From a virus: a stretch of 37,017 nucleotides of DNA. This document shows, one piece after another, positions 128 through 37,017 of this stretch. The translations under genes were made by a program, and so were the position numbers. The stretch is taken from the IMG/VR virus record IMGVR_UViG_3300048687_000120, positions 1 to 37,017 of that record. One strand, 5' to 3'. The notes under the pieces are model-generated. The model was not told the origin of the DNA. It made no database searches and saw only the letters and a list, made by a program, of their open reading frames with translations. The stretch's first letter is position 1; each line of letters opens with the position of its first letter.

Positions 128-1378
128 TTCTTCCAGGGCCGGGATGAGCGAGCCGGCCGGACCGCCGCCGTCGATCACCCAGCAGCGCGGCTTGTGTCGT
201 TCGTGCAGGTCAGCGGCCCTGTCCAGGAGCCAGCCGGTACCCGGTTGATGGTCGACAACTTCCACGTGGGTGCCGCCGCGCCACGTGGAGGCCACGCCGA
301 TCGCCGCGTGCGAGCGTTCCGGGGTCATGTCGATCGAGAAGGACAGCGGCCCCTCGGGCTTGGAGTTGGCGTCCGCCAGCGTCCGCCATACGTCCTCACC
401 GATGACCTGCCAGGTGCTGGCCTTGTCCGACGGATACTCGCCGACCCCCAGCCGCTCCCGGGCGTACAGGAAGTCGCCCATGGTCAGCCGTCCGTGCATG
501 CTCTTGTCGACCTGCAGTCGGTAGCCCACCGCCGGATTCGCCTTCAGCAGCGAGGCCACCGAGTCGACGTCGTCGTGCGCCGTGCAGTCGGGCAGGCACT
601 CGGCCACATGCGGGTCGATCGACCACTCCATGTACGCGAGGACCGGATCCGGATCGCCACTCTCCAGCGCGGCCAGGGCGCGTTCCCGCAGCCGGCCGAG
701 CTGCTGTGAGGCGTGCCCGATACCGGCGCTGCCCAGGTACCACAGCTGGCTGTTCTCGACGGCGTCCGAGGTAGGCGCCAGCGCGGACATCGCGTCATCG
801 CCAAGGATCATGCACTCGTCGAAGATGACGCAGTCCGAGGTGAAGCCTCGTCCCGAGCCGCGGGAGCGGGCGATGTACTTCAGCTCCCGCCCGTCGTGCA
901 GCTCGATGCCCTCGCGGCCGACCGTCTTGTGGTAGTGCTTGACGCGTTTGTGCAGGTCAGGGCACCCGCGGATGAGCCGCTCGATGCGCTTCATCGTGTT
1001 CTGTGTCGTCTTGAACTCGTGCGCGCTCAGCAGGATCTGCTTCTCGTCGCCGATGAACAGGCCCCACAGCACCCGCGCCTCGATGATGCCGCCCTTGCCG
1101 TTCTGCCGCGGGAGGTTAACCGCGACCTCGGTGGCGTTCCAGCTGCCGTCCGCCCGCTCGCTCATGCCCTGGTCCAGGACGAACTGTTGCCAGGGATCGA
1201 GGTGGAGACCGGCTCGGGCCGCCAGGGCAACGGCCTCCTGCCCGGCGCTCGAGAGGGCGAAGCCCGGTACAGCGTGGATCCGCGGCCGCTGTGCGCCGTA
1301 GATGGTCGTGTCAGTCGCCGGCTGCTGCCTGCTCGCGGGCTTCGGCCCGGCGCTTTTCTCGCTGACGAGCGATGTCAT
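1..1378 (-). CDS. terL: Terminase large subunit, N-terminal ~459 codons; the ORF runs off the left edge and continues at 36890..36736
   Basis: Hand translation of the minus strand from ATG 1378 (SD GGAGGGAG about 9 nt upstream) is open to base 1. It contains ...AVNLPRQNGKGGIIEARVLWG... (Walker A) and ...SDCVIFDECMILG... (Walker B). It is missing from the ORF track because it has no stop inside the window edge. The start is uncertain (68-nt overlap with the upstream ORF). Confidence 0.9.
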   Translation of the reverse strand, partial: MTSLVSEKSAGPKPASRQQPATDTTIYGAQRPRIHAVPGFALSSAGQEAVALAARAGLHLDPWQQFVLDQGMSERADGSWNATEVAVNLPRQNGKGGIIEARVLWGLFIGDEKQILLSAHEFKTTQNTMKRIERLIRGCPDLHKRVKHYHKTVGREGIELHDGRELKYIARSRGSGRGFTSDCVIFDECMILGDDAMSALAPTSDAVENSQLWYLGSAGIGHASQQLGRLRERALAALESGDPDPVLAYMEWSIDPHVAECLPDCTAHDDVDSVASLLKANPAVGYRLQVDKSMHGRLTMGDFLYARERLGVGEYPSDKASTWQVIGEDVWRTLADANSKPEGPLSFSIDMTPERSHAAIGVASTWRGGTHVEVVDHQPGTGWLLDRAADLHERHKPRCWVIDGGGPAGSLIPALEERLGITVVQPKVREVGAACGQFYDAVTEQALSHIDNAPLAMAL

Positions 1379-8972: not shown

Positions 8973-9015
8973 CGAAGGGCCCGTTACCTCGGGGGTCGGG
9001 GTGACGGGCCCTTCG
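8973..9015. terminator. Bidirectional terminator hairpin (12-bp perfect stem)
   Basis: CGAAGGGCCCGT (8973-8984) / ACGGGCCCTTCG (9004-9015), between convergent stops at 8950 and 9028. Confidence 0.65.
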
Positions 9016-9027
9016 TCGTGTCCGGAC

Positions 9028-9684
9028 TCAGGCGGTGAGGTCGGGCTGGCCGAGTGCCATCCAGGTGTCGAGCCACTGGGTGGGGTCCAGCTCGGTACGG
9101 CAGGTGCGGCAGGAGGCGAGGCGCCGGGCGTGGTCGTAGCGCATCCGCCCGTCGCAGCGGTCGCCGTCGGGAAGTTCGGCCGGGCACGGCACGGCGGGCG
9201 GGCGGGGGGCCCCGCCGGTCACCGCGGTCATCTCCTCGACGACCTTGCCGAGTTCGTCGTCGAGGAGGCGCAGGTCGCATCCCTGGACCGCCCATGACAG
9301 GTGCCGGCGGATGCCGCGCAGCGCCAGGCGGAGGCGGCCGTCCGCGCCGGTGGGCATCAGCTGCGGGGCGAACCCGCGGGCCGCGGAGATGTCGGCGTAG
9401 CGCCAGTACAGGCGGGTCGGGACGCCGCCCGGGCCGATCAGGTTGAGGACCTGTTCGGCGGCCGGGAGCGGCGGGTGGGTGCTGCCGGAGACGCGGGGCC
9501 CGCCGTGCCCGCGGGTCGGCTCGAGGCTGTCGGACAGCTGCGCCCACAGGTCGGGAACCGCGTCGAGGCGGGCGGTGATGCGGGCCTCGCAGCGCGGGCA
9601 GGTGGTCCAGGTGGCCCGGTCGCCGTGCAGGCCGTGCCCGCAGATGGTGCAGACGTTCACGTGCACTCCCGTGTCAGGCAGCAA
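9028..9684 (-). CDS. Hypothetical protein with N- and C-terminal Cys4 zinc-ribbon-like motifs
   Basis: …VCTICGHG…TTCPRCEARI… and …CPAELPDGDRCDG…ASCRTCRTEL. The likely true start is GTG 9666 or 9660 (GGGAG SD). Confidence 0.55.
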   Translation of the reverse strand: MLPDTGVHVNVCTICGHGLHGDRATWTTCPRCEARITARLDAVPDLWAQLSDSLEPTRGHGGPRVSGSTHPPLPAAEQVLNLIGPGGVPTRLYWRYADISAARGFAPQLMPTGADGRLRLALRGIRRHLSWAVQGCDLRLLDDELGKVVEEMTAVTGGAPRPPAVPCPAELPDGDRCDGRMRYDHARRLASCRTCRTELDPTQWLDTWMALGQPDLTA

Positions 9685-10024
9685 GCTGCGGGCGGCGGAT
9701 GAGCTGGCGTATGAGGGCGGGGGCCGGGGCGCCGCGGCGCCGGCCGGTGGATCCGGCGCGGCACCGGCACGGGTGGCCGGAGCGGGCGGGCACGGCCGGC
9801 TGCGGCGCGCTGGGGTAGTCCAGGGCCAGCTCGAGGTCCTGCAGTTGGGGGTGGGTGATGCTCATCCATCCGGCGAGCCGGTGCAGGTGCTCGGGGTCGG
9901 CGCCGTGGTCGAGGTGGTCCTGGATCTGGCGGGCGATGCCGCGGACGGCGCAGGTGGAGCGGTCGGTGCCGTCGGCCCAGTAGCGGGCGATCCGTCGTGC
10001 GGTGGCGCTCACGGGCGTGTCCAT
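9674..10024 (-). CDS. Hypothetical protein
   Basis: 116-aa ORF with ATG 10024. The N-terminal two thirds look protein-like; the C-terminus is Arg/Pro-rich. Confidence 0.5.
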   Translation of the reverse strand: MDTPVSATARRIARYWADGTDRSTCAVRGIARQIQDHLDHGADPEHLHRLAGWMSITHPQLQDLELALDYPSAPQPAVPARSGHPCRCRAGSTGRRRGAPAPALIRQLIRRPQLAA

Positions 10025-10081
10025 CGGGGGGACGCTGCCTTTCTGTCAGTTGTTGATCAGAGCGGCCCCGCGCCTGGTTTC

Positions 10082-10110
10082 AGAGTGGCATGGATTTCCA
10101 GATGTGTTCC
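10082..10110 (-). promoter_or_regulatory. Candidate promoter PB (-35 GGAACA, 17-nt spacer, -10 CACTCT)
   Basis: Same 18-mer as at 4082-4099, with the same hexamer spacing. It lies about 55-80 nt upstream of ATG 10024. Confidence 0.45.
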
Positions 10111-10213
10111 CCCCGCTCCCCCTTGCCGAGCGATGGCCTGCGGGTATGGCGGAGGGCCCGCCCCGGTGTACGGGAACGGGCGCTCGCTGTCGGGCTGGTG
10201 GCGGTGCGTCAGG

Positions 10214-11572
10214 TCACGTCCATGCCGCTTCCTTCGCACCCTGCTGCGCCGGGACGGGTGCGGGCGGGGCCTGGAATCCCTCGGGGCCCGCCGCCTGCCA
10301 CGGCCAGCTGGCGCCCCGCATGAACCCCTCAGGCCAGTCGCGTTCGCTGCGGCTGCCACGCCACGGGTGCCAGCGGACCAGGCCCTCCTCCTCGGCGAAC
10401 TGGATCTCCTTGTTGGAGACCGGGGCGAGACCGAATCCGAACTCGGGCCAGCGCATCCACAGTGAGGAGCCGATGGGGCGATAGTCACGCTGCCGCTCGC
10501 CCCCGGCACGGTGTGGGGCGTGTGCCTCGATCAGCATGGCCGCGCCGTTGGAGGCGACCCTGACGGACTCCAGGGCGGACATGAGGGTGCGGGCGACTTC
10601 TTCGTCATTGGGGTTGCCGCCGGCGAGCTTGTACAGCGGACCGATGGCGATCATGTCGGGGGTGTTGCGCTCGACCAGGCGCAGCAGCCGGGCCCGGTCG
10701 CCGGGGTTGTTCAGGTCCAGGCCGCCCTCGATGACCTCAACTTTGAAGTTGTTGAGCAGGTCGCCCACGTCGCCGTCCAGTTCCTGGCGGGCTGCCTGCT
10801 GCATGCTGCGCAGCCACGGCCGGACCTGCGATCTGCTGTTCTCGACGTCGACCAGGAGCACGCGCTTGGGCACGATGCGGGCTTTCTTCCAGGGGTGCAG
10901 GCCTGCTGCGGTGCGCATGAGCAGCTGCCGGTTGAACAGGGACTTGCCGCCGCCCTCGGGTGCGGTGACGATGAGCCGGTCCCACCGGGCGAGGACGCCG
11001 GGGATGACCCACTCGGGTTCGTCGTCGGCCTCGTCCAGGAACTCGCCCAGGGTCGGCGTCGGAGTGTCGGTGGCTGCCATGCCCCGGTCGCGGACCGCCC
11101 GCAGCCGTTCGACGCCATCCTCCAGCACCTCGGTGACGTCGCCCTGGCGCGCGAACAGGGCCTGCACGGTGCGGGTCGACTCCTCGATCCCACCGCGAGC
11201 GGCCGCGTGCTCGGCGACGATCTCGGCATAGTGCTCGGACTGGCCGGGAGTGGACACGCTCCGCACCAGTTCGTGCAGATAGCTAGGGCCGCCCATCCGG
11301 TAGATGTCGCCGCTCTTGGTGAGCTCGGCCGCGACCGTGATCGGGTCCGCCTGCTCCTGCCCGCGGGCATGCACCGTCAGGATCGCGTCGTACACGGTCT
11401 GATGGGCGGGCTTGTAGAACTCGGTGCCGCTGGTCAGGATGCGGGACACCTCGGCGACGGCGTCTCTGGACAGCAGCATGCCGCCGAGGATGGCCTGCTC
11501 GGCGTCCAGGTCCTGCGGGGGCAGCCGCTCGAACGGCATCGGGGGTGCGGTGTCGTCGAAGTCTGGTTCCAT
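10214..11572 (-). CDS. Replicative helicase-like protein: DnaB N-terminal domain fused to a RecA-like (AAA_25/RepA-type) ATPase
   Basis: From ATG 11572 (SD GGAGA): …PPQDLDAEQAILGGMLLSRDAV…YKPAHQTVYDAI… (DnaB-N), then …LIVTAPEGGGKSLFNRQL… (Walker A) and …VLLVDVEN… (Walker B-like). Confidence 0.75.
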   Translation of the reverse strand: MEPDFDDTAPPMPFERLPPQDLDAEQAILGGMLLSRDAVAEVSRILTSGTEFYKPAHQTVYDAILTVHARGQEQADPITVAAELTKSGDIYRMGGPSYLHELVRSVSTPGQSEHYAEIVAEHAAARGGIEESTRTVQALFARQGDVTEVLEDGVERLRAVRDRGMAATDTPTPTLGEFLDEADDEPEWVIPGVLARWDRLIVTAPEGGGKSLFNRQLLMRTAAGLHPWKKARIVPKRVLLVDVENSRSQVRPWLRSMQQAARQELDGDVGDLLNNFKVEVIEGGLDLNNPGDRARLLRLVERNTPDMIAIGPLYKLAGGNPNDEEVARTLMSALESVRVASNGAAMLIEAHAPHRAGGERQRDYRPIGSSLWMRWPEFGFGLAPVSNKEIQFAEEEGLVRWHPWRGSRSERDWPEGFMRGASWPWQAAGPEGFQAPPAPVPAQQGAKEAAWT

Positions 11573-11658
11573 GGTGGGGGATCTCCTGTTCGGATCACAA
11601 GCTGGCAGGGGGTTCGGCGGGCCGGCCCCGGCATGGGCCGGCCCGCACACATGTCCGG

Positions 11659-12669
11659 CTACAGACCGGAGCCGATGAACCTGCGTCGCGCGGGTGCGGC
11701 CACGGTCGCCTGCACCGCGGAGTACAGGCGCAGATCACGCACCCAGTTGGGCAGGCACTTGACCCAGGAGTCGGCGCCGCCGGTGTTCTTGAAGATGTCT
11801 GCCTCGAGCAGCTGCTGCTGGGCGTCGTCCATGTCGGCGATCTGCGGCCATCCCTGATCGCGCATCGCGCGCAGCAGCAACGGGGCGCACTTGCGGGCGG
11901 TAGCTGCCCCTGCCTGCCAGGTGGTCATCTGCTGCAGGAAGACCTCGGCGTTCCGGGTTTGCTCCGGAGAGAATCCCTCCCCCTCCGCTCGTTGCTGCGC
12001 CGTGCTCTTGGCGTGCGTGAGGGGGTTGGGGGAGGAGGAATCCTCCTCCTCCGGGGGGTGTGGGGGGGGAGCGTCCGATCCGGACAGGGTGTCCCGATCG
12101 GTCTGACCTGCGGCGTTGGGTGATTTCCGATCGGGACAGGGTGTCCCGATCGGCGCCGATCCGGACAGGGTGTCCCGATCGGCCTGACCTGCGCATCCGG
12201 ACAGGGTGTCCCGATCGGAAGCGGCGTTGGCCTCCCCATCGGGACAGGGTGTCCCGATCGGCCTGACCTGCAGTGCTTCCTGGACGCCGCCGCGGACATA
12301 GGCGGCGTTGTTGGCGGGGTTCCGGTAAACACGGAACACCCACTCGGGGCGCTTCGTCTCCGGGTTGTACTCCCGCTTGTGTTCCACGTGGCCGGCCTTC
12401 TTCAGCCGTCGCATGATCTTGCGGAGGTCGCGTTCGCTGAGCGTCCAGCCGCCCGTCCGGAACTCGTCGAGCAGGCCGAGGATGCTGGACGGCTGCTTCG
12501 GGTCACGGAGCAGCAGGCGGATGAGGACGCCGTAGTCGTCGAAGTCGAGGTCCGGTGAGAGCGCGAGGGCGTACGGAATGACGACCTCCTCCGGCGGCTC
12601 CCACATCCGGATGACCCGGGTTGCGGCGAAGCCAGGACCAAAGGTGTCCTGCGTGGCGTCTTGCGCCAT
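11659..12669 (-). CDS. Replication initiator candidate (winged-helix-like N-domain; iteron-containing CDS)
   Basis: From ATG 12669 (SD AGGAA): …DDYGVLIRLLLRDPKQPSSILGLLDEFRTGGWTLSERDLRKIMRRLKKAGHVEHKR…. It lies immediately upstream of the helicase gene and contains the 5x20-bp repeat array. Confidence 0.55.
   Translation of the reverse strand: MAQDATQDTFGPGFAATRVIRMWEPPEEVVIPYALALSPDLDFDDYGVLIRLLLRDPKQPSSILGLLDEFRTGGWTLSERDLRKIMRRLKKAGHVEHKREYNPETKRPEWVFRVYRNPANNAAYVRGGVQEALQVRPIGTPCPDGEANAASDRDTLSGCAGQADRDTLSGSAPIGTPCPDRKSPNAAGQTDRDTLSGSDAPPPHPPEEEDSSSPNPLTHAKSTAQQRAEGEGFSPEQTRNAEVFLQQMTTWQAGAATARKCAPLLLRAMRDQGWPQIADMDDAQQQLLEADIFKNTGGADSWVKCLPNWVRDLRLYSAVQATVAAPARRRFIGSGL
12082..12261. repeat. 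Five exact 20-bp iterons GGACAGGGTGTCCCGATCGG (candidate origin of replication)
   Basis: Copies start at 12082, 12134, 12163, 12199 and 12242. Each is the core of a 23-25 bp near-palindrome (C/G)ATC(C/G)GGACA-GGG-TGTCCCGATCG. Confidence 0.7.
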
Positions 12670-12860
12670 GTGCTTGTTCCTATCGGGTAGGAGAAGCACC
12701 GAGATCCATGTCATCCCCGGCCTGCCTTCCCGCCCTTCCCGGTGGCGGGTACAGTCCTTGATGGGACCTACGTGGAACCCAGACTTCTCATTTGTTTCGT
12801 TTCCTGCGAGACGAGAGATGTGAACCGGCGGCTTCCCGGCCGACCAGTTCGGACGCATTC

Positions 12861-12890
12861 GATGCCCGGCGACTTCCCGCGCCGGGCATC
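12861..12890 (-). terminator. Hairpin after the Cro-like gene (11-bp stem)
   Basis: GATGCCCGGCG / CGCCGGGCATC with an 8-nt loop, 21 nt downstream of the stop at 12911. Confidence 0.55.
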
Positions 12891-12910
12891 AGCGCGTTCT
12901 GGGGGTGTTG

Positions 12911-13126
12911 CTACGCGCTGACGGGCGCCTTGATGCGCTTCGCCAGCTCGCCCTCCCAGTCCCCGCGGTGGATTCGCGTGGCCAGGTCGAACTGCATGGT
13001 GCGCACCTTCAGGCGCCCGTCACGCAGCATGGTCTTCAGGGTGCGCGGGTCGACGCCGATGACGGCCGCAGCCTCGGTCACCTTGATCCACTCGGGCTTG
13101 ATGTGGCTGGGTGTGCTGTACGGCAT
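12911..13126 (-). CDS. Small HTH DNA-binding protein (excisionase/MerR-like HTH_17 type; Cro-like position)
   Basis: 71 aa from ATG 13126 (SD GGGAGGGG): MPYSTPSHIKPEWIKVTEAAAVIGVDPRTLKTMLRDGRLKV…. Confidence 0.65.
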   Translation of the reverse strand: MPYSTPSHIKPEWIKVTEAAAVIGVDPRTLKTMLRDGRLKVRTMQFDLATRIHRGDWEGELAKRIKAPVSA

Positions 13127-13160
13127 GGCCCCTCCCGGGACGCGTTGAGGTCGTAACCAG

Positions 13161-13189
13161 ACACTCGCACAGATTTCACAAGACGTTCC
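13161..13189 (-). promoter_or_regulatory. Candidate promoter PC (-35 GGAACG, 17-nt spacer, -10 GAGTGT)
   Basis: Minus strand GAGGTGAGGGGGGAACGTC…GAGTGT. It has the same G-run + GGAAC + 17 nt + NANNNT architecture as PA and PB. Confidence 0.4.
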
Positions 13190-13193
13190 CCCC

Positions 13194-13643
13194 TCACCTC
13201 TGGCCATGATCTGCAGCCACGAGGCGAGGACTCTCGCCGCCCATTTCGTGTACGGCGCGCTGCACCGTTTCGACTGGATCGCCGAACGATGTCAGGTCGA
13301 ACCACTCGCCCCGTACGCGGTAGGCCGCGAACCGTCGGTGCAGTTCTCTCTCGTACTTCCCGGTCGTGGACCAAAGAAGAGAGAGCGTCATCGGCTGACC
13401 AGTTTGGAGGGCCGCCAGGCGTCTCTGTGGGTCCAGAGTGGTGTGCCCGATCTTGACAAGGTGGGTGTGCTCCGCGCCGATCAGGTACGTCCTGGGGACT
13501 TCCTGCATTCGCTGCCACTTGCGTTCCAAGGCCGATGCCCGACCGGGGAGCAGCGGACGAAAGCGCTCGTTGTTCTTCCTAGGCGCCTCGACACCTCCGA
13601 CGATGAGGTAGCGGCCCGGATCCTCATAGTCGTACTTCCGCAT
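13194..13643 (-). CDS. T5orf172 / GIY-YIG-superfamily (MUG113-like) domain protein
   Basis: 149 aa from ATG 13643: …TYLIGAEHTHLVKIGHTTLDPQRRLAALQTGQPMTLSLLWSTTGKYERELHRRFAAYRVRGEWFDL…. Confidence 0.65.
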   Translation of the reverse strand: MRKYDYEDPGRYLIVGGVEAPRKNNERFRPLLPGRASALERKWQRMQEVPRTYLIGAEHTHLVKIGHTTLDPQRRLAALQTGQPMTLSLLWSTTGKYERELHRRFAAYRVRGEWFDLTSFGDPVETVQRAVHEMGGESPRLVAADHGQR

Positions 13644-13647
13644 CCCG

Positions 13648-14451
13648 CTACTCCTTCGGCCGAACAGGCTGGACGGGCCACTCAGCATCGCCTCCGCGGA
13701 CCAAGTCGGAGACGAGCTCCACCCGGTCGCTCGGAATCACCTTCATCGTGACCTCGATAGGCGCGTCGGTCCGTGCCGAGTAGCCGACCATCGTCACCTC
13801 GAAGACAGGCAGCGCCGTCGCGATGGACAGCAGGTCCGCCTCCTCCTTGCTCGGCATGCGAGCACGGATGGTCTCGCGCCAGGAGATGGGCCCGTGGCCG
13901 GCATCTTCCAGGCGGTCGAGATATCCGCCAGGGCCGGTGTCCGGCTCGGCTACCTGGGGGGCGTCGGCAACGGCGGCGGGACTGATCCATGTGTCGACCA
14001 GCTGGAAGGCGGGCTCTCCCTTGGGGGCCATGACGCGACGCCGACGCAACACGGAAGCCCCCGCCTCCACGCCGAACGTGTCGGCGACGAGTGCGGGCAC
14101 GGGCTCGAGCGATCGGAACGGCTTGCCGAGCGGACCCCACGTCTCGGACGGATCGTGGGTGGCAGGGAAGACGTAGCCGTAGTGCGGGTTGCGGGTGACG
14201 GTCTGGCCACGGCGGATACGCCGGCGCCGGACGCGGTCCTGCAAGACGATGCCGCGGCGGTTCACCGAGCGGATGAGCCCCTCGGCCGCGACCATGTTCA
14301 CGGCCGAACGGATCGTTTCCCGCGCTACGTCGTACTGGTCGGTCAGGTCCGCGATGGTTGCGAGGACTTCGCCGGGCTGCTTCTCCCCGTTGAGAACTCG
14401 GGCTCGCAGATCGTCCGCGACTTCTCGCGCGGTTCGCTTCTTGGTGGTCAT
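13648..14451 (-). CDS. GntR/HutC-family transcriptional regulator (wHTH + UTRA-like C-domain); repressor candidate
   Basis: 267 aa: …VLATIADLTDQYDVARETIRSAVNMVAAEGLIRSVNRRGIVL… followed by a ~180-aa effector-type domain. It faces a divergent promoter/operator region. Confidence 0.8.
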   Translation of the reverse strand: MTTKKRTAREVADDLRARVLNGEKQPGEVLATIADLTDQYDVARETIRSAVNMVAAEGLIRSVNRRGIVLQDRVRRRRIRRGQTVTRNPHYGYVFPATHDPSETWGPLGKPFRSLEPVPALVADTFGVEAGASVLRRRRVMAPKGEPAFQLVDTWISPAAVADAPQVAEPDTGPGGYLDRLEDAGHGPISWRETIRARMPSKEEADLLSIATALPVFEVTMVGYSARTDAPIEVTMKVIPSDRVELVSDLVRGGDAEWPVQPVRPKE

Positions 14452-14458
14452 ACCGACA

Positions 14459-14510
14459 ACCCTAGCAGAGAACCTAGGTACTTGACGTTGAGACTAGGTT
14501 CTAATAGTGT
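14459..14510. promoter_or_regulatory. Divergent promoter/operator switch
   Basis: Rightward promoter: -35 TTGACG 14482-14487, 17-nt spacer, -10 TAGTGT 14505-14510. Leftward promoter: -10 TAGGGT (complement of 14459-14464), 7 nt before the GntR ATG (leaderless). 9-bp inverted repeat AGAACCTAG 14469-14477 / CTAGGTTCT 14494-14502 brackets the -35. ACCTAGGT 14472-14479 is itself a perfect palindrome. Confidence 0.6.
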
Positions 14511-14633
14511 CTGCCATGTCGGAAAGAGCGGCGGCCCAGTAACGCCGATAGGCCCAGGTGGTAACGACACCCAGGCCTATCGGGGGTCCCGAAGGACCCG
14601 GCGACCACGTCCTACCGCAATAGGAGTGACCGC

Positions 14634-15125
14634 ATGCGCAACCGTAGCGCAGCTATCGAAACCACGACCGAACGGGACCGCCTCGGGAACCCGTTCAACG
14701 ACTTCCTCGCCTCCTACGTCGACACGCCCCAGGGCCGCGTGACCGGCCGGCTGAGCGTGGACGACATCGTCTCCATCCGCGAGACCACCCTCTCCGAGGC
14801 GCCGAACCGCACCTACGTGTCGGTCCTCGGCTACGTCGAGTCGGTCCGCACCTTCATGAGCGTCAAGTGGCCCGCCCGGCACCCGTTCGGCGTCTTCCGC
14901 CTGGACTCCGGAACCGGTGCCGCCGCGATCGTCACCCTGACCTCGGTCAAGTACGAGAAGTACTGGGGCGACCTCGTCATGGGCCGCCGCGTCCGCGTCT
15001 GCGGAGCCGTCACCCGTTCCGAGCAGGGCGCCCCCGTGACGCTCCGCCTGGACCGGCTGACCGTCCTCCGCACCCTGCTCGTCACCCCCGCCCAGGACAC
15101 CCACCGTCTGGCCGGAGCCCGGTGA
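14634..15125 (+). CDS. Hypothetical protein, possibly an OB-fold nucleic-acid-binding protein
   Basis: 163 aa; AGGAG SD 8 nt upstream. A beta-rich segment …VRVCGAVTRSEQGAPVTLRLDRLTVL… resembles OB-fold anticodon-binding-type domains (weak call). Confidence 0.4.
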   Translation: MRNRSAAIETTTERDRLGNPFNDFLASYVDTPQGRVTGRLSVDDIVSIRETTLSEAPNRTYVSVLGYVESVRTFMSVKWPARHPFGVFRLDSGTGAAAIVTLTSVKYEKYWGDLVMGRRVRVCGAVTRSEQGAPVTLRLDRLTVLRTLLVTPAQDTHRLAGAR

Positions 15126-15745
15126 TGGCGACCCTCGAAGCCTTCGACGCCGGTCAGCCCATCGACCTCAAGCTGATCCTCGCCGTCGAGAACGCCCTCC
15201 GTCACCTGTCCGACACCCGAGTGCGGCTCGTCCCCGCCCCCCGGGTGTGGAAGGACTCCAACCCCCAGGGCAGCGTCAAGGGCCCCAAGTGGCAGGAGAA
15301 GGCGAGGATCAAGGGCCTCCTCGCCGCCCGCGACGGCGCCGCCTGCGCCTACTGCGGCCACGACTTCTACAACTTGACCGAGGCCACGCTCGACCACGTC
15401 ATCCCGAACTGCATCGTTGGCCACTGGGAACCGTGGAACCTGCTCCTGGCCTGCGAGCCGTGCAACAACCAGAAGGCCGACCTTCTGCCGCTCGTCCTGA
15501 TGCCGATGCTCTGCACGACACTCACGGCCGCCGACCGGTGGCTGCAGGCAAAGGCCGAGAAGAAGCGAGCGAGCCGCCGGGCAAAGAAGCGTCGCGCCAA
15601 TGACAGGCGCAGGGCCCGCCGGCGTCACGACGCCGCCATGGCGGCCGCGAGGAAGCAGATCAGCGCACTGTCCGGCACCCCGTACCGGCTCGCCCTCGAA
15701 GCGGCCCCGGCCCGCGCGGCGCTCCCCAGCGGGACCGGCCAGTGA
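15125..15745 (+). CDS. HNH endonuclease (second copy, early operon)
   Basis: The ATG overlaps the upstream stop (TGATG). Contains …CAYCGHDF…LDHVIPNCIVGHWEPWNLLLACEPCNNQKAD… and a basic C-terminal tail. Confidence 0.8.
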   Translation: MATLEAFDAGQPIDLKLILAVENALRHLSDTRVRLVPAPRVWKDSNPQGSVKGPKWQEKARIKGLLAARDGAACAYCGHDFYNLTEATLDHVIPNCIVGHWEPWNLLLACEPCNNQKADLLPLVLMPMLCTTLTAADRWLQAKAEKKRASRRAKKRRANDRRRARRRHDAAMAAARKQISALSGTPYRLALEAAPARAALPSGTGQ

Positions 15746-16077
15746 CCAGCGACCAGGCCCGCGCCTCCCTGAACCGCCTGGCCGCCGCCCTGCACGAGCT
15801 CAGCTACCGCGGCACCATCCGCATCCGGCCCGAGATCCGGCTGCTGCTGGTCCCCGGCACCCCGGACGCGGACCCCGCCGACCTGCACGCCATCGGCCTC
15901 AGCCCGCAGATCGCGAACCTGCTCGCCGACACCATCGAGCGCCTCATGCGCGACACCGCGCCGACGCTCCCCGCCGAGGATGCCGCGCTCGCGGCCGCCG
16001 TCGCCGACATCTTCAACTCCCTCGACGTCGACGCGCTGCGCGCCGCCGAGACGCACCGTAAGGACGTGGACGAATGA
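15742..16077 (+). CDS. Hypothetical protein
   Basis: 111 aa; GTGA start/stop overlap with the upstream gene. Confidence 0.55.
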   Translation: MTSDQARASLNRLAAALHELSYRGTIRIRPEIRLLLVPGTPDADPADLHAIGLSPQIANLLADTIERLMRDTAPTLPAEDAALAAAVADIFNSLDVDALRAAETHRKDVDE

Positions 16078-36735: not shown

Positions 36736-37017
36736 TCACCAGACCGCGTTCATGATGTCGCCGGGATACTCGACCTCGGCGCCGAGTCCCCACTTGGCCA
36801 GCGTCACGGCCACCAGGGGGGAGATATCGACACCGACGCCACGCCGGGCCCACGCCCAGGCGTCGCCCAACGGACGCTTCTGTGCGCCCGCCAGGGCCAT
36901 GGCCAGGGGCGCGTTGTCGATGTGGGAGAGAGCCTGCTCGGTGACCGCGTCGTAGAACTGACCGCAGGCCGCGCCGACTTCCCGCACCTTGGGCTGGACC
37001 ACCGTGATGCCGAGCCG
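36736..37017 (-). CDS. terL: Terminase large subunit, C-terminal part (same gene as 1..1378 through the circular junction; about 510 aa in total)
   Basis: Track ORF 36736..37002 (…VQPKVREVGAACGQFYDAVTEQALSHIDNAPLAMALAG…) is in the same frame (coordinate mod 3) as the ORF leaving base 1. Residues encoded by 1-127 are the same as those encoded by 36891-37017. Confidence 0.9.
   Translation of the reverse strand, partial: RLGITVVQPKVREVGAACGQFYDAVTEQALSHIDNAPLAMALAGAQKRPLGDAWAWARRGVGVDISPLVAVTLAKWGLGAEVEYPGDIMNAVW
36891..37017. repeat. Terminal direct repeat, copy 2 (identical to 1..127)
   Basis: Same 127-nt string as the window start (ccagggccatggccaggggcgcgttgtcgatg...gtgatgccgagccg). Confidence 0.95.

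Follow-up and report, generated by a model that had tools for sequence, protein, structure and literature searches.

In phage lambda the origin of replication lies inside the O gene, in the part coding for the linker of the initiator. It comprises palindromic iterons, a palindrome on their C-terminal side and an AT-rich region, and the N- and C-terminal modules of the protein are exchangeable. The origin-binding protein G38P of phage SPP1 likewise has its sites (oriL) inside its own gene, with a DnaB-type helicase encoded nearby. In the common replicon of Streptomyces linear plasmids a gene for a DNA-binding protein with iterons, rep1, adjoins a gene for a helicase-like protein, rep2 (PMC2974207, PMC13152386, PMC11707576), and in these accounts the pSLA2 locus is credited to Chang et al. 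1996 and that of SLP2 to Huang et al. 2003. Here we describe a locus of this general kind in a viral sequence of 37,017 nucleotides, IMG/VR record IMGVR_UViG_3300048687_000120, which is referred to as the window. Five palindromic iterons are found in the middle of a minus-strand gene for a 336-residue candidate initiator, which we call Rep. We consider it likely, with a probability of about 0.8, that this is a theta-type, iteron-type origin from which the phage replicates, placed within the gene for its own initiator, in the middle part that codes for the linker. This is because the repeats are non-random, their geometry is conserved, codon usage points to the DNA, iterons covary with the protein, the domain layout and the order of the rep and helicase genes fit, and in one small plasmid, NZ_CP094263.1, the same genes are the sole candidate for replication.

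The repeat is built around the 20-mer GGACAGGGTGTCCCGATCGG. Five copies are present without mismatch on the plus strand, starting at 12082, 12134, 12163, 12199 and 12242, just as had been claimed in the original prediction, which was made from the letters alone. The chance expectation from dinucleotide-preserving shuffles was 0.01 matches, none of 100 shuffles reached 6, and a search of the whole window gave no further copies outside the array. The 20-mer had also been taken as the core of a dyad. This is correct, and when the copies are aligned the unit extends to 27 nt, CCGATC(C/G)GGACAGGGTGTCCCGATCGG, with the copy at 12127-12153 forming a perfect 12+3+12 palindrome. Numbered on the plus strand, copies 1, 3 and 5 each have a single mismatch in the arms and the left arm of copy 4 is more degenerate; the spacing from start to start is 52, 29, 36 and 43 nt. 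The array (12075-12271) is contained within the open reading frame (ORF) 11659-12669 on the minus strand, where it codes for residues ~133-198, and the palindrome is read in two frames to give either PIGTPCPD or DRDTLSG. In coding order iteron 1 (12235..12261, CCGATCGGGACACCCTGTCCCGATGGG) is read as PIGTPCPD, iteron 2 (12192..12218), in which the 3′ arm is degenerate, and iteron 3 (12156..12182) as DRDTLSG, iteron 4 (12127..12153, copy 2 of the plus strand) as PIGTPCPD and iteron 5 (12075..12101) again as DRDTLSG, all on the minus strand. The alternating peptides that had been noted in the middle of this gene are thus the products of the same DNA in two frames. When the region of 275 nt is folded as a single strand, the predicted structure consists of five iteron hairpins together with a hairpin in the C-tract element described below (z = -6.7).

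Directly after copies 1, 3 and 5 on the plus strand is (T/C)CTGACCTGC, at 12103-12111, 12184-12192 and 12263-12271, in agreement with what had been seen originally. On the coding strand this becomes GCAGGTCAG, a 9-mer that occurs six times in the window where 0.6 would be expected, three of the six being in the array. Box 1 (12263..12271, minus strand) is directly 5′ of iteron 1 and is read Q-V-R, while box 2 (12184..12192, minus strand), 5′ of iteron 3, and box 3 (12103..12111, minus strand), 5′ of iteron 5, are both read A-G-Q. The frame of box 1 therefore differs from that of the other two, and the boxes are kept throughout the family with rare codons.

The 3′ edge of the array is formed by a GC-rich element (12019..12069, minus strand), which runs C8-ACA-C6, then the inverted repeat GGAGGAGGA-T-TCCTCCTCC, then C5-AA-C5. 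The encoded peptide is PPHPPEEEDSSSPNPL, and on the plus strand the element appears as four G-runs around a hairpin. The DNA of the element is nearly invariant in 43 homologues, the proteins of which are down to 36% identical. In the inverted repeat it is the loop that varies (ATT, TAACTA, TGGATA or TGGAAA), with the arms conserved. The four C-runs flank the hairpin at 44 of the 52 loci; elsewhere in the sequence scanned, a further 862 kb, this pattern turned up only 10 times. Scanning IMG/VR for CCCCCACACCCCCCGGRGGAGG recovered all six of the viral contigs with Rep and one other (L065), where the match is intergenic, resembles a chance occurrence and was not counted. From these scans the motif is essentially diagnostic of the replication module. 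No meaningful match was obtained in a scan of 11000-13500 against Rfam.

The rep gene (11659..12669, minus strand) was assigned the ATG at 12669 on the basis of the alignment of homologues. In the AlphaFold2 model, calculated with an alignment of 39 sequences, the N-terminal domain (residues ~40-133) is a winged helix of three helices and a β-hairpin with pLDDT (the predicted local distance difference test) above 90. It is coded by 12271..12552 (minus strand), with the helices at residues 43-54, 63-72 and 79-91 and the hairpin at 95-114. Residues 135-230 are predicted to be disordered (pLDDT below 50), the first two-thirds, to ~198, being encoded by the repeats, and a helical C-terminal domain, again predicted with confidence, follows at 235-324. 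The model therefore bears out the suggestion that the repeats code for a linker between a winged-helix-like N-domain and a C-domain. Rep gave zero matches in the Pfam, PHROG and NCBIfam libraries. A sequence-profile search of the PDB likewise found no relative, only a spurious match to pentatricopeptide repeats and a hint of PadR with an E-value of 0.84. Using Foldseek against the PDB the winged helices of PadR, MarR, the N-terminal domain of DnaD and RTP were retrieved with weak E-values from 0.015 (0.067 for DnaD). Against BFVD the matches carry the names RepA-like replication initiator, replisome organizer and DnaD, with E-values of 6e-7 to 4e-4 and low template modelling (TM) scores of ~0.23, and the alignments span ~320-345 columns, covering both domains of Rep.

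The original prediction likened the locus to lambda O and its origin. In terms of layout this stands. The candidate origin is within the initiator gene, between the DNA-binding domain and a putative recruiting domain; the linker-coding iterons are individually palindromic and are flanked by a palindrome on the C-terminal side; and N- and C-terminal modules have been exchanged among the relatives of Rep. What does not stand is membership of the family, as Rep matches neither Phage_rep_O nor any other Pfam or PHROG model and has no sequence relationship with O, nor is there the AT-rich region, the place of which is taken by a C-tract element of 74% GC. In addition, there are five sites with a spacing of 29-52 bp rather than four closely packed ones, and the next gene encodes a helicase, with the DnaB N-terminal domain and AAA_25, instead of a P-type loader for the host DnaB. 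With SPP1 the locus shares sites inside the initiator gene and a nearby helicase gene, and the names of the structural matches in BFVD could point the same way, though with the low TM score of ~0.23, E-values against the PDB of at least 0.015 and no match by sequence in the PDB search; no separate gene for a helicase loader was identified in the window. Like the Rep_3 plasmids (pPS10, F and R6K), the window would have a winged-helix initiator, here a predicted one, with repeated sites at the origin. However, Rep does not match Rep_3 and has one winged helix in the model rather than WH1 and WH2, and its sites are palindromic and intragenic where those of Rep_3 are direct repeats.

The locus also resembles replicons of Streptomyces plasmids. 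As in the rep1/rep2 replicons of pSLA2 and pSCL1, a gene for a DNA-binding protein with iterons adjoins a helicase gene, and a tblastn search (E<=1e-5) placed homologues of Rep on 38 PLSDB plasmids of Streptomyces or Kitasatospora, the linear SLP2 among them; the window differs in that the module is carried by a 36.9-kb siphophage with an integrase. The pSLA2 origin is reportedly also within rep1, and is said to have been described by Chang, Kim and Cohen in 1996 as a ‘phage-like, centrally located origin’. As no S. clavuligerus plasmid is among the tblastn matches, the pSCL1-type Rep1 may belong to a different protein family. In SLP2, from S. lividans, pQC542.19 is a true homologue, aligning with Rep over 90% of the protein at 36% identity. 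The corresponding part of its gene holds a distinct palindromic repeat, CGCTTCCCGGAACGCCGGAAGCG, along with GCAGGTCAG boxes and the same CCCCCACACCCCCCGGAGGAGGAGGATTCCTCCTCC element as in the window, and the gene that follows codes for a helicase. SLP2 differs from the window in being a linear plasmid capped by terminal proteins and in the partner, which is a full-length DnaB with the DnaB_C ATPase whereas that of the window has AAA_25; only the N-domain is common to the two helicases, with 28% identity over 216 residues.

In total 208 homologues of Rep were found, almost all annotated as ‘hypothetical protein’. Those listed are nearly all from Streptomyces and Kitasatospora, with a few from Rhodococcus, Nocardia and Actinacidiphila. 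Among 50,697 phage records, no match was obtained either to Rep by tblastn or to positions 9000-16000 of the window by megablast. In IMG/VR six contigs carry the rep gene, one of them a relative of 35.9 kb and several others equal in length to plasmid records of ~87-88 kb. The same replication module occurs on Streptomyces plasmids, both circular and linear, and on other viral contigs. Two Rep-bearing records in IMG/VR, of 86,882 bp (L055) and 87,893 bp (L058), are identical in size to the PLSDB entries NZ_CP032230.1 and NZ_CP058980.1, respectively. These replicons are catalogued both as plasmid and as virus and are candidate Streptomyces phage-plasmids. In the protein alignment all members follow the same layout, with an N-domain ending in YRNPANN, variable repeats, the near-invariant motif PPHPPEE(E/V)(D/T/E)(S/T)SSP and then the C-domain.

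By comparing 44 homologous loci in detail we found that the geometry of the array is kept while its sequence changes. In 44 of 45 loci RNPANN and PPHPP are 246-258 nt apart, and every homologue carries a palindromic repeat of its own, at offsets of ~63, 106, 142, 171 and 223 nt, a spacing of 43/36/29/52 in the coding direction; palindromic cores are present in most of the homologues examined. Examples of the repeats are GCGGGAAACCCGC, CGTTGGATTCCAACG, ATCGGGGAAAACCCGA and CCGATCGGGCCGAATCGGCCCGATC, with GGGCCGAATCGGCCC as the type of locus L002. In every array there are three invariant boxes of the GCAGGTCAG type, followed by a C-tract, the GGAGGAGG/CCTCCTCC inverted repeat and a second C-tract. 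The five sites are thus fixed in position with a sequence that changes along with the N-domain, which supports the embedded origin that had been proposed. In the two closest relatives conservation was at the level of the DNA, a comparison that had been suggested at the outset: between the window and L054 (66% protein identity) the iterons are 97%, the boxes 100% and the spacers 55% identical, and for L060 (75% protein identity) the respective figures are 95%, 100% and 55%.

The codons used tell the same story. Relative to the background in the same genes, the second proline of PPHPP is CCA in 37 of 44 loci (CCA makes up 4% of proline codons), the serine at position 11, in the SSS stretch, is TCC in 38 of 38 (25%), the glycine of AGQ or PGQ is GGT in 69 of 76 in-frame boxes (14%) and the alanine of AGQ is GCA in 38 of 40 (8%). 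The prolines of the C-runs are encoded by CCC or CCT and never by CCG, which accounts for 61% of the background. As a control, RNPANN, which is equally invariant as a motif, varies freely at synonymous sites. Moreover, the peptide encoded by GGAGGAGG...CCTCCTCC differs between members, being EEEDSSS, EEVTTSS, SGGGTSS or GGGGTTS. Because rare codons are fixed, the motifs are independent of frame and the iterons are kept while the spacers diverge, the position, spacing and sequence of the repeats are, on this comparison, under selection as DNA.

A further line of evidence comes from the way in which the iterons and the protein vary together. Over the 44 loci, similarity between iterons follows similarity between N-domains (Mantel rho 0.79, p=0.001), whereas the correlation of iterons with the C-domain is 0.14 and that of the N- with the C-domain 0.05. 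Individual cases show the same. The window and L054 have iterons in common and N-domains that are 91% identical, while their C-domains are 35% and their helicases 23% identical. In L062 (IMGVR_UViG_2767802108_000001, 89 kb; ~550-930, reverse strand) a non-homologous winged-helix N-domain with iterons of the sequence CCACGTGGCACCAATGGCCACACGTGG is fused to the same C-domain at the same junction of box and C-tract. This is a clear exchange of the specificity module as a cassette. The conserved element at 12019-12069 marks the point at which N- and C-modules have been exchanged.

Downstream of rep, after a gap of 83 bp, is the gene for the helicase partner (10214..11575, minus strand), for which Pfam, PHROG and NCBIfam all give a DnaB N-terminal domain and an AAA_25 (RecA-like) ATPase. 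The helicase that had been expected as the next gene is thus there; its ATPase is of the AAA_25 type, as in RSF1010 RepA and RecA, and not DnaB_C. A gene with the DnaB N-terminal motif is downstream of rep in at least 35 of 48 homologous loci. On the circular plasmid NZ_CP094263.1, a small conjugative plasmid of 23.9 kb with an FtsK/SpoIIIE Tra protein and KilB, the pair of Rep and helicase is the only replication candidate annotated. The genes are in the order GntR, Rep, helicase. At the locus itself (L068, 11919-12180) there are five iterons with a spacing of 42/37/28/53, three GGTCAG boxes, the C-tract and the hairpin GGGAGGAGG-AAA-CCTCCTCCC.

Taken with the domain layout, these data suggest how the origin may work. 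Rep would be produced from the leftward early operon. Dimers of the N-terminal winged helix would then bind the five 27-bp iterons, as the dyad symmetry and the covariation of iteron and N-domain suggest, and the bound array may form a nucleoprotein complex by analogy with the lambda O-some. The helical C-domain would presumably recruit the helicase encoded 83 bp downstream, which is consistent with the gene order and with the independent exchange of the C-domain. The strands might be opened and the helicase loaded at or beside 12019-12069, which would stand in for the AT-rich region and palindrome of lambda; this is the least certain step. The GCAGGTCAG boxes are probably read by a conserved component, which could be the C-domain of Rep, its helicase or a factor from the host, since they are common to members that differ in iteron specificity.

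A number of points weigh against this reading. That Rep binds the iterons and that the origin fires we infer from sequence and not from experiment. The correlation of iterons with N-domains could in part be due to physical linkage instead of recognition, although the conservation of the iterons relative to equally linked spacers, which are only 55% identical, argues for a function beyond linkage. The similarity of C-domains is not correlated with that of the helicases (Spearman 0.06, with a crude automatic extraction of the downstream ORF), so contact between the two is without comparative support. Of the pairs in the hairpin of the GC-rich element 95% are retained across homologues, but there are only 5 compensatory cells; this covariation is weak, and conservation of the structure as opposed to the sequence is unproven. 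There is no AT-rich stretch beside the array, where the adjacent 50-bp bins have 64-74% GC (74% for 12050-12100), and the only stretch of low GC (48%, 12750-12800) is upstream of rep, ~480 bp away. Finally, that Rep1 of pSLA2 is a member of the family, and that the SLP2 homologue, deposited simply as pQC542.19, is the experimentally mapped SLP2 origin (Xu et al. 2006), are presumptions that depend on secondary citations.

That a GC-rich element stands where an AT-rich unwinding region would be expected is the most original part of these findings. Since the element is invariant, fixed in its codons, independent of frame and located at the junction of module exchange, with a four-run pattern largely confined to the locus, it could be that it represents a new type of element for origin opening and helicase loading in high-GC replicons, which replaces the AT-rich unwinding region. 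Extrusion of the GGAGGAGG/CCTCCTCC hairpin would then stabilise the opening, helped by the four flanking G/C runs, which would fold into a G-quadruplex (template strand) or an i-motif (coding strand), and the boxes would dock a conserved factor. We put this forward tentatively, as a possibility with the odds against it. The same element might instead act on the RNA or in translation while the iterons still formed the origin. Here the strong internal Shine–Dalgarno (SD)-like GGAGGAGGAGGA and the hairpin would pause ribosomes once the N-domain and linker had emerged, either favouring binding of the nascent initiator in cis or attenuating expression of the C-domain and helicase. As GGAGGAGG is complementary to the anti-SD of 16S rRNA, the element is always on the coding strand within the ORF, and changes compatible with G-U pairing are seen in the stem (11 GU cells), there is some basis for this. 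It would not, however, explain why there are four flanking C-runs from which CCG codons are strictly absent, and no Rfam family is matched; we think a role of this sort distinctly unlikely.

The array could also be a control site to which Rep binds, as an autoregulatory roadblock or operator or for copy control, incompatibility or handcuffing, with initiation elsewhere, for example at ~12745-12830 upstream of rep. Plasmid iteron arrays are known to serve control functions too, and intragenic sites would, when occupied, block transcription of rep itself. The lack of an AT-rich region at the array and the presence of the sole stretch of 48% GC upstream of the gene would be in keeping with this. 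On the other hand, the upstream region has no positive comparative support, its conservation not having been examined, whereas the element adjoining the array is conserved throughout the family and kept in L062 even with an unrelated N-domain and unrelated iterons. Control and origin functions are, moreover, not mutually exclusive. A control site with the origin elsewhere therefore seems unlikely. It is highly improbable that the repeats have no role as DNA, being either a recent duplication of peptides in the linker or a repetitive or mobile insertion. Though repeats are tolerated in linkers of the disordered kind predicted here, one palindrome gives two different peptides in two frames, the positions are fixed across a family with protein identities as low as 36%, iterons are conserved with divergent spacers, and rare codons are fixed. 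The irregular spacing of 29-52 nt and the location within a coding sequence exclude clustered regularly interspaced short palindromic repeats (CRISPR) or a simple tandem repeat, and with the fixed positions across the family a miniature inverted-repeat transposable element was rejected as well. We therefore retain an embedded origin as the very probable interpretation. In kind its layout is one already known from Streptomyces rep1/rep2-type replicons, lambda and SPP1, so that the origin is well supported without being new; what is unusual is that it is found in a phage carrying an integrase and that the protein family is large and almost wholly unannotated.

Two other signals at the locus were considered. 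There are eight GATC sites within 12075-12261, CGATCG being part of the iteron class of the window. Control of the Dam type was rejected as the enrichment in the arrays (13.8 vs 5.8 per kb) is limited to certain iteron classes and is absent in 15 of 49 arrays of the family. The maximum of the cumulative GC skew at ~12-13 kb falls where the genes change orientation and so was not taken as independent evidence for an origin. The region at 12745-12830, upstream of rep, has the lowest GC of the neighbourhood and could be a promoter or an alternative site of unwinding.

As a whole the window is a complete temperate siphophage genome, of Streptomyces type, with 36.9 kb and ~70% GC. Among its genes are those for terminase, portal, prohead protease, major capsid, tail tube and tape measure proteins and a tyrosine integrase; there are no tRNA genes. 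An exact direct repeat of 127 bp at its ends (1-127 and 36891-37017) indicates a circular assembly of ~36,890 bp. The ORF for the large subunit of the terminase crosses the end junction, coding for 557 residues once the ends are joined. The leftward operon runs from a GntR/UTRA regulator through a T5orf172 protein and an HTH_17 protein to Rep and the helicase. The regulator (13648..14451, minus strand) heads this early operon and is context, outside the origin; it matches PHROG 10724 with an E-value of 8e-70, and GntR genes are likewise found ahead of the rep homologues of L060 and NZ_CP094263.1, which points to a master repressor of the GntR type like those of the integrative and conjugative elements of Streptomyces. 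Together with the T5orf172/MUG113 protein the regulator occupies 13194-14451 (minus strand), upstream of rep. In the gap between the stop of rep and the start of the helicase gene is a perfect hairpin made up of G and C only (11617-11646), GCGGGCCGGCCC / GGGCCGGCCCGC with a loop of 6 nt; its role could be that of an attenuator or of an intergenic processing site. An ORF at 14867-15745 (plus strand) has the HNH-type motif CAYCGH...DHVIP...N, and L060 likewise has an HNH gene near the replication module.

For the family, these results mean that ~200 proteins without a Pfam, PHROG or NCBIfam model can be given the putative label ‘iteron-binding replication initiator with internal origin’, and that they appear to be the replicon of many Streptomyces plasmids, linear as well as circular. 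One replication module is shared by a 37-kb phage with an integrase, by plasmids of ~87-92 kb that are also viral in IMG/VR and by plasmids proper. Within it, N-domain and iterons are exchanged as a cassette, independently of the C-domain, at a conserved junction in the DNA. The GC-rich element and the GCAGGTCAG boxes provide targets that can be mutated in studying how an origin is opened in DNA of ~70% GC that lacks an AT-rich region. The fragment from 10.2 to 12.9 kb is a candidate minimal replicon for Streptomyces vectors, and the diversity of the pairs of iteron and N-domain suggests a set of mutually compatible replicons.

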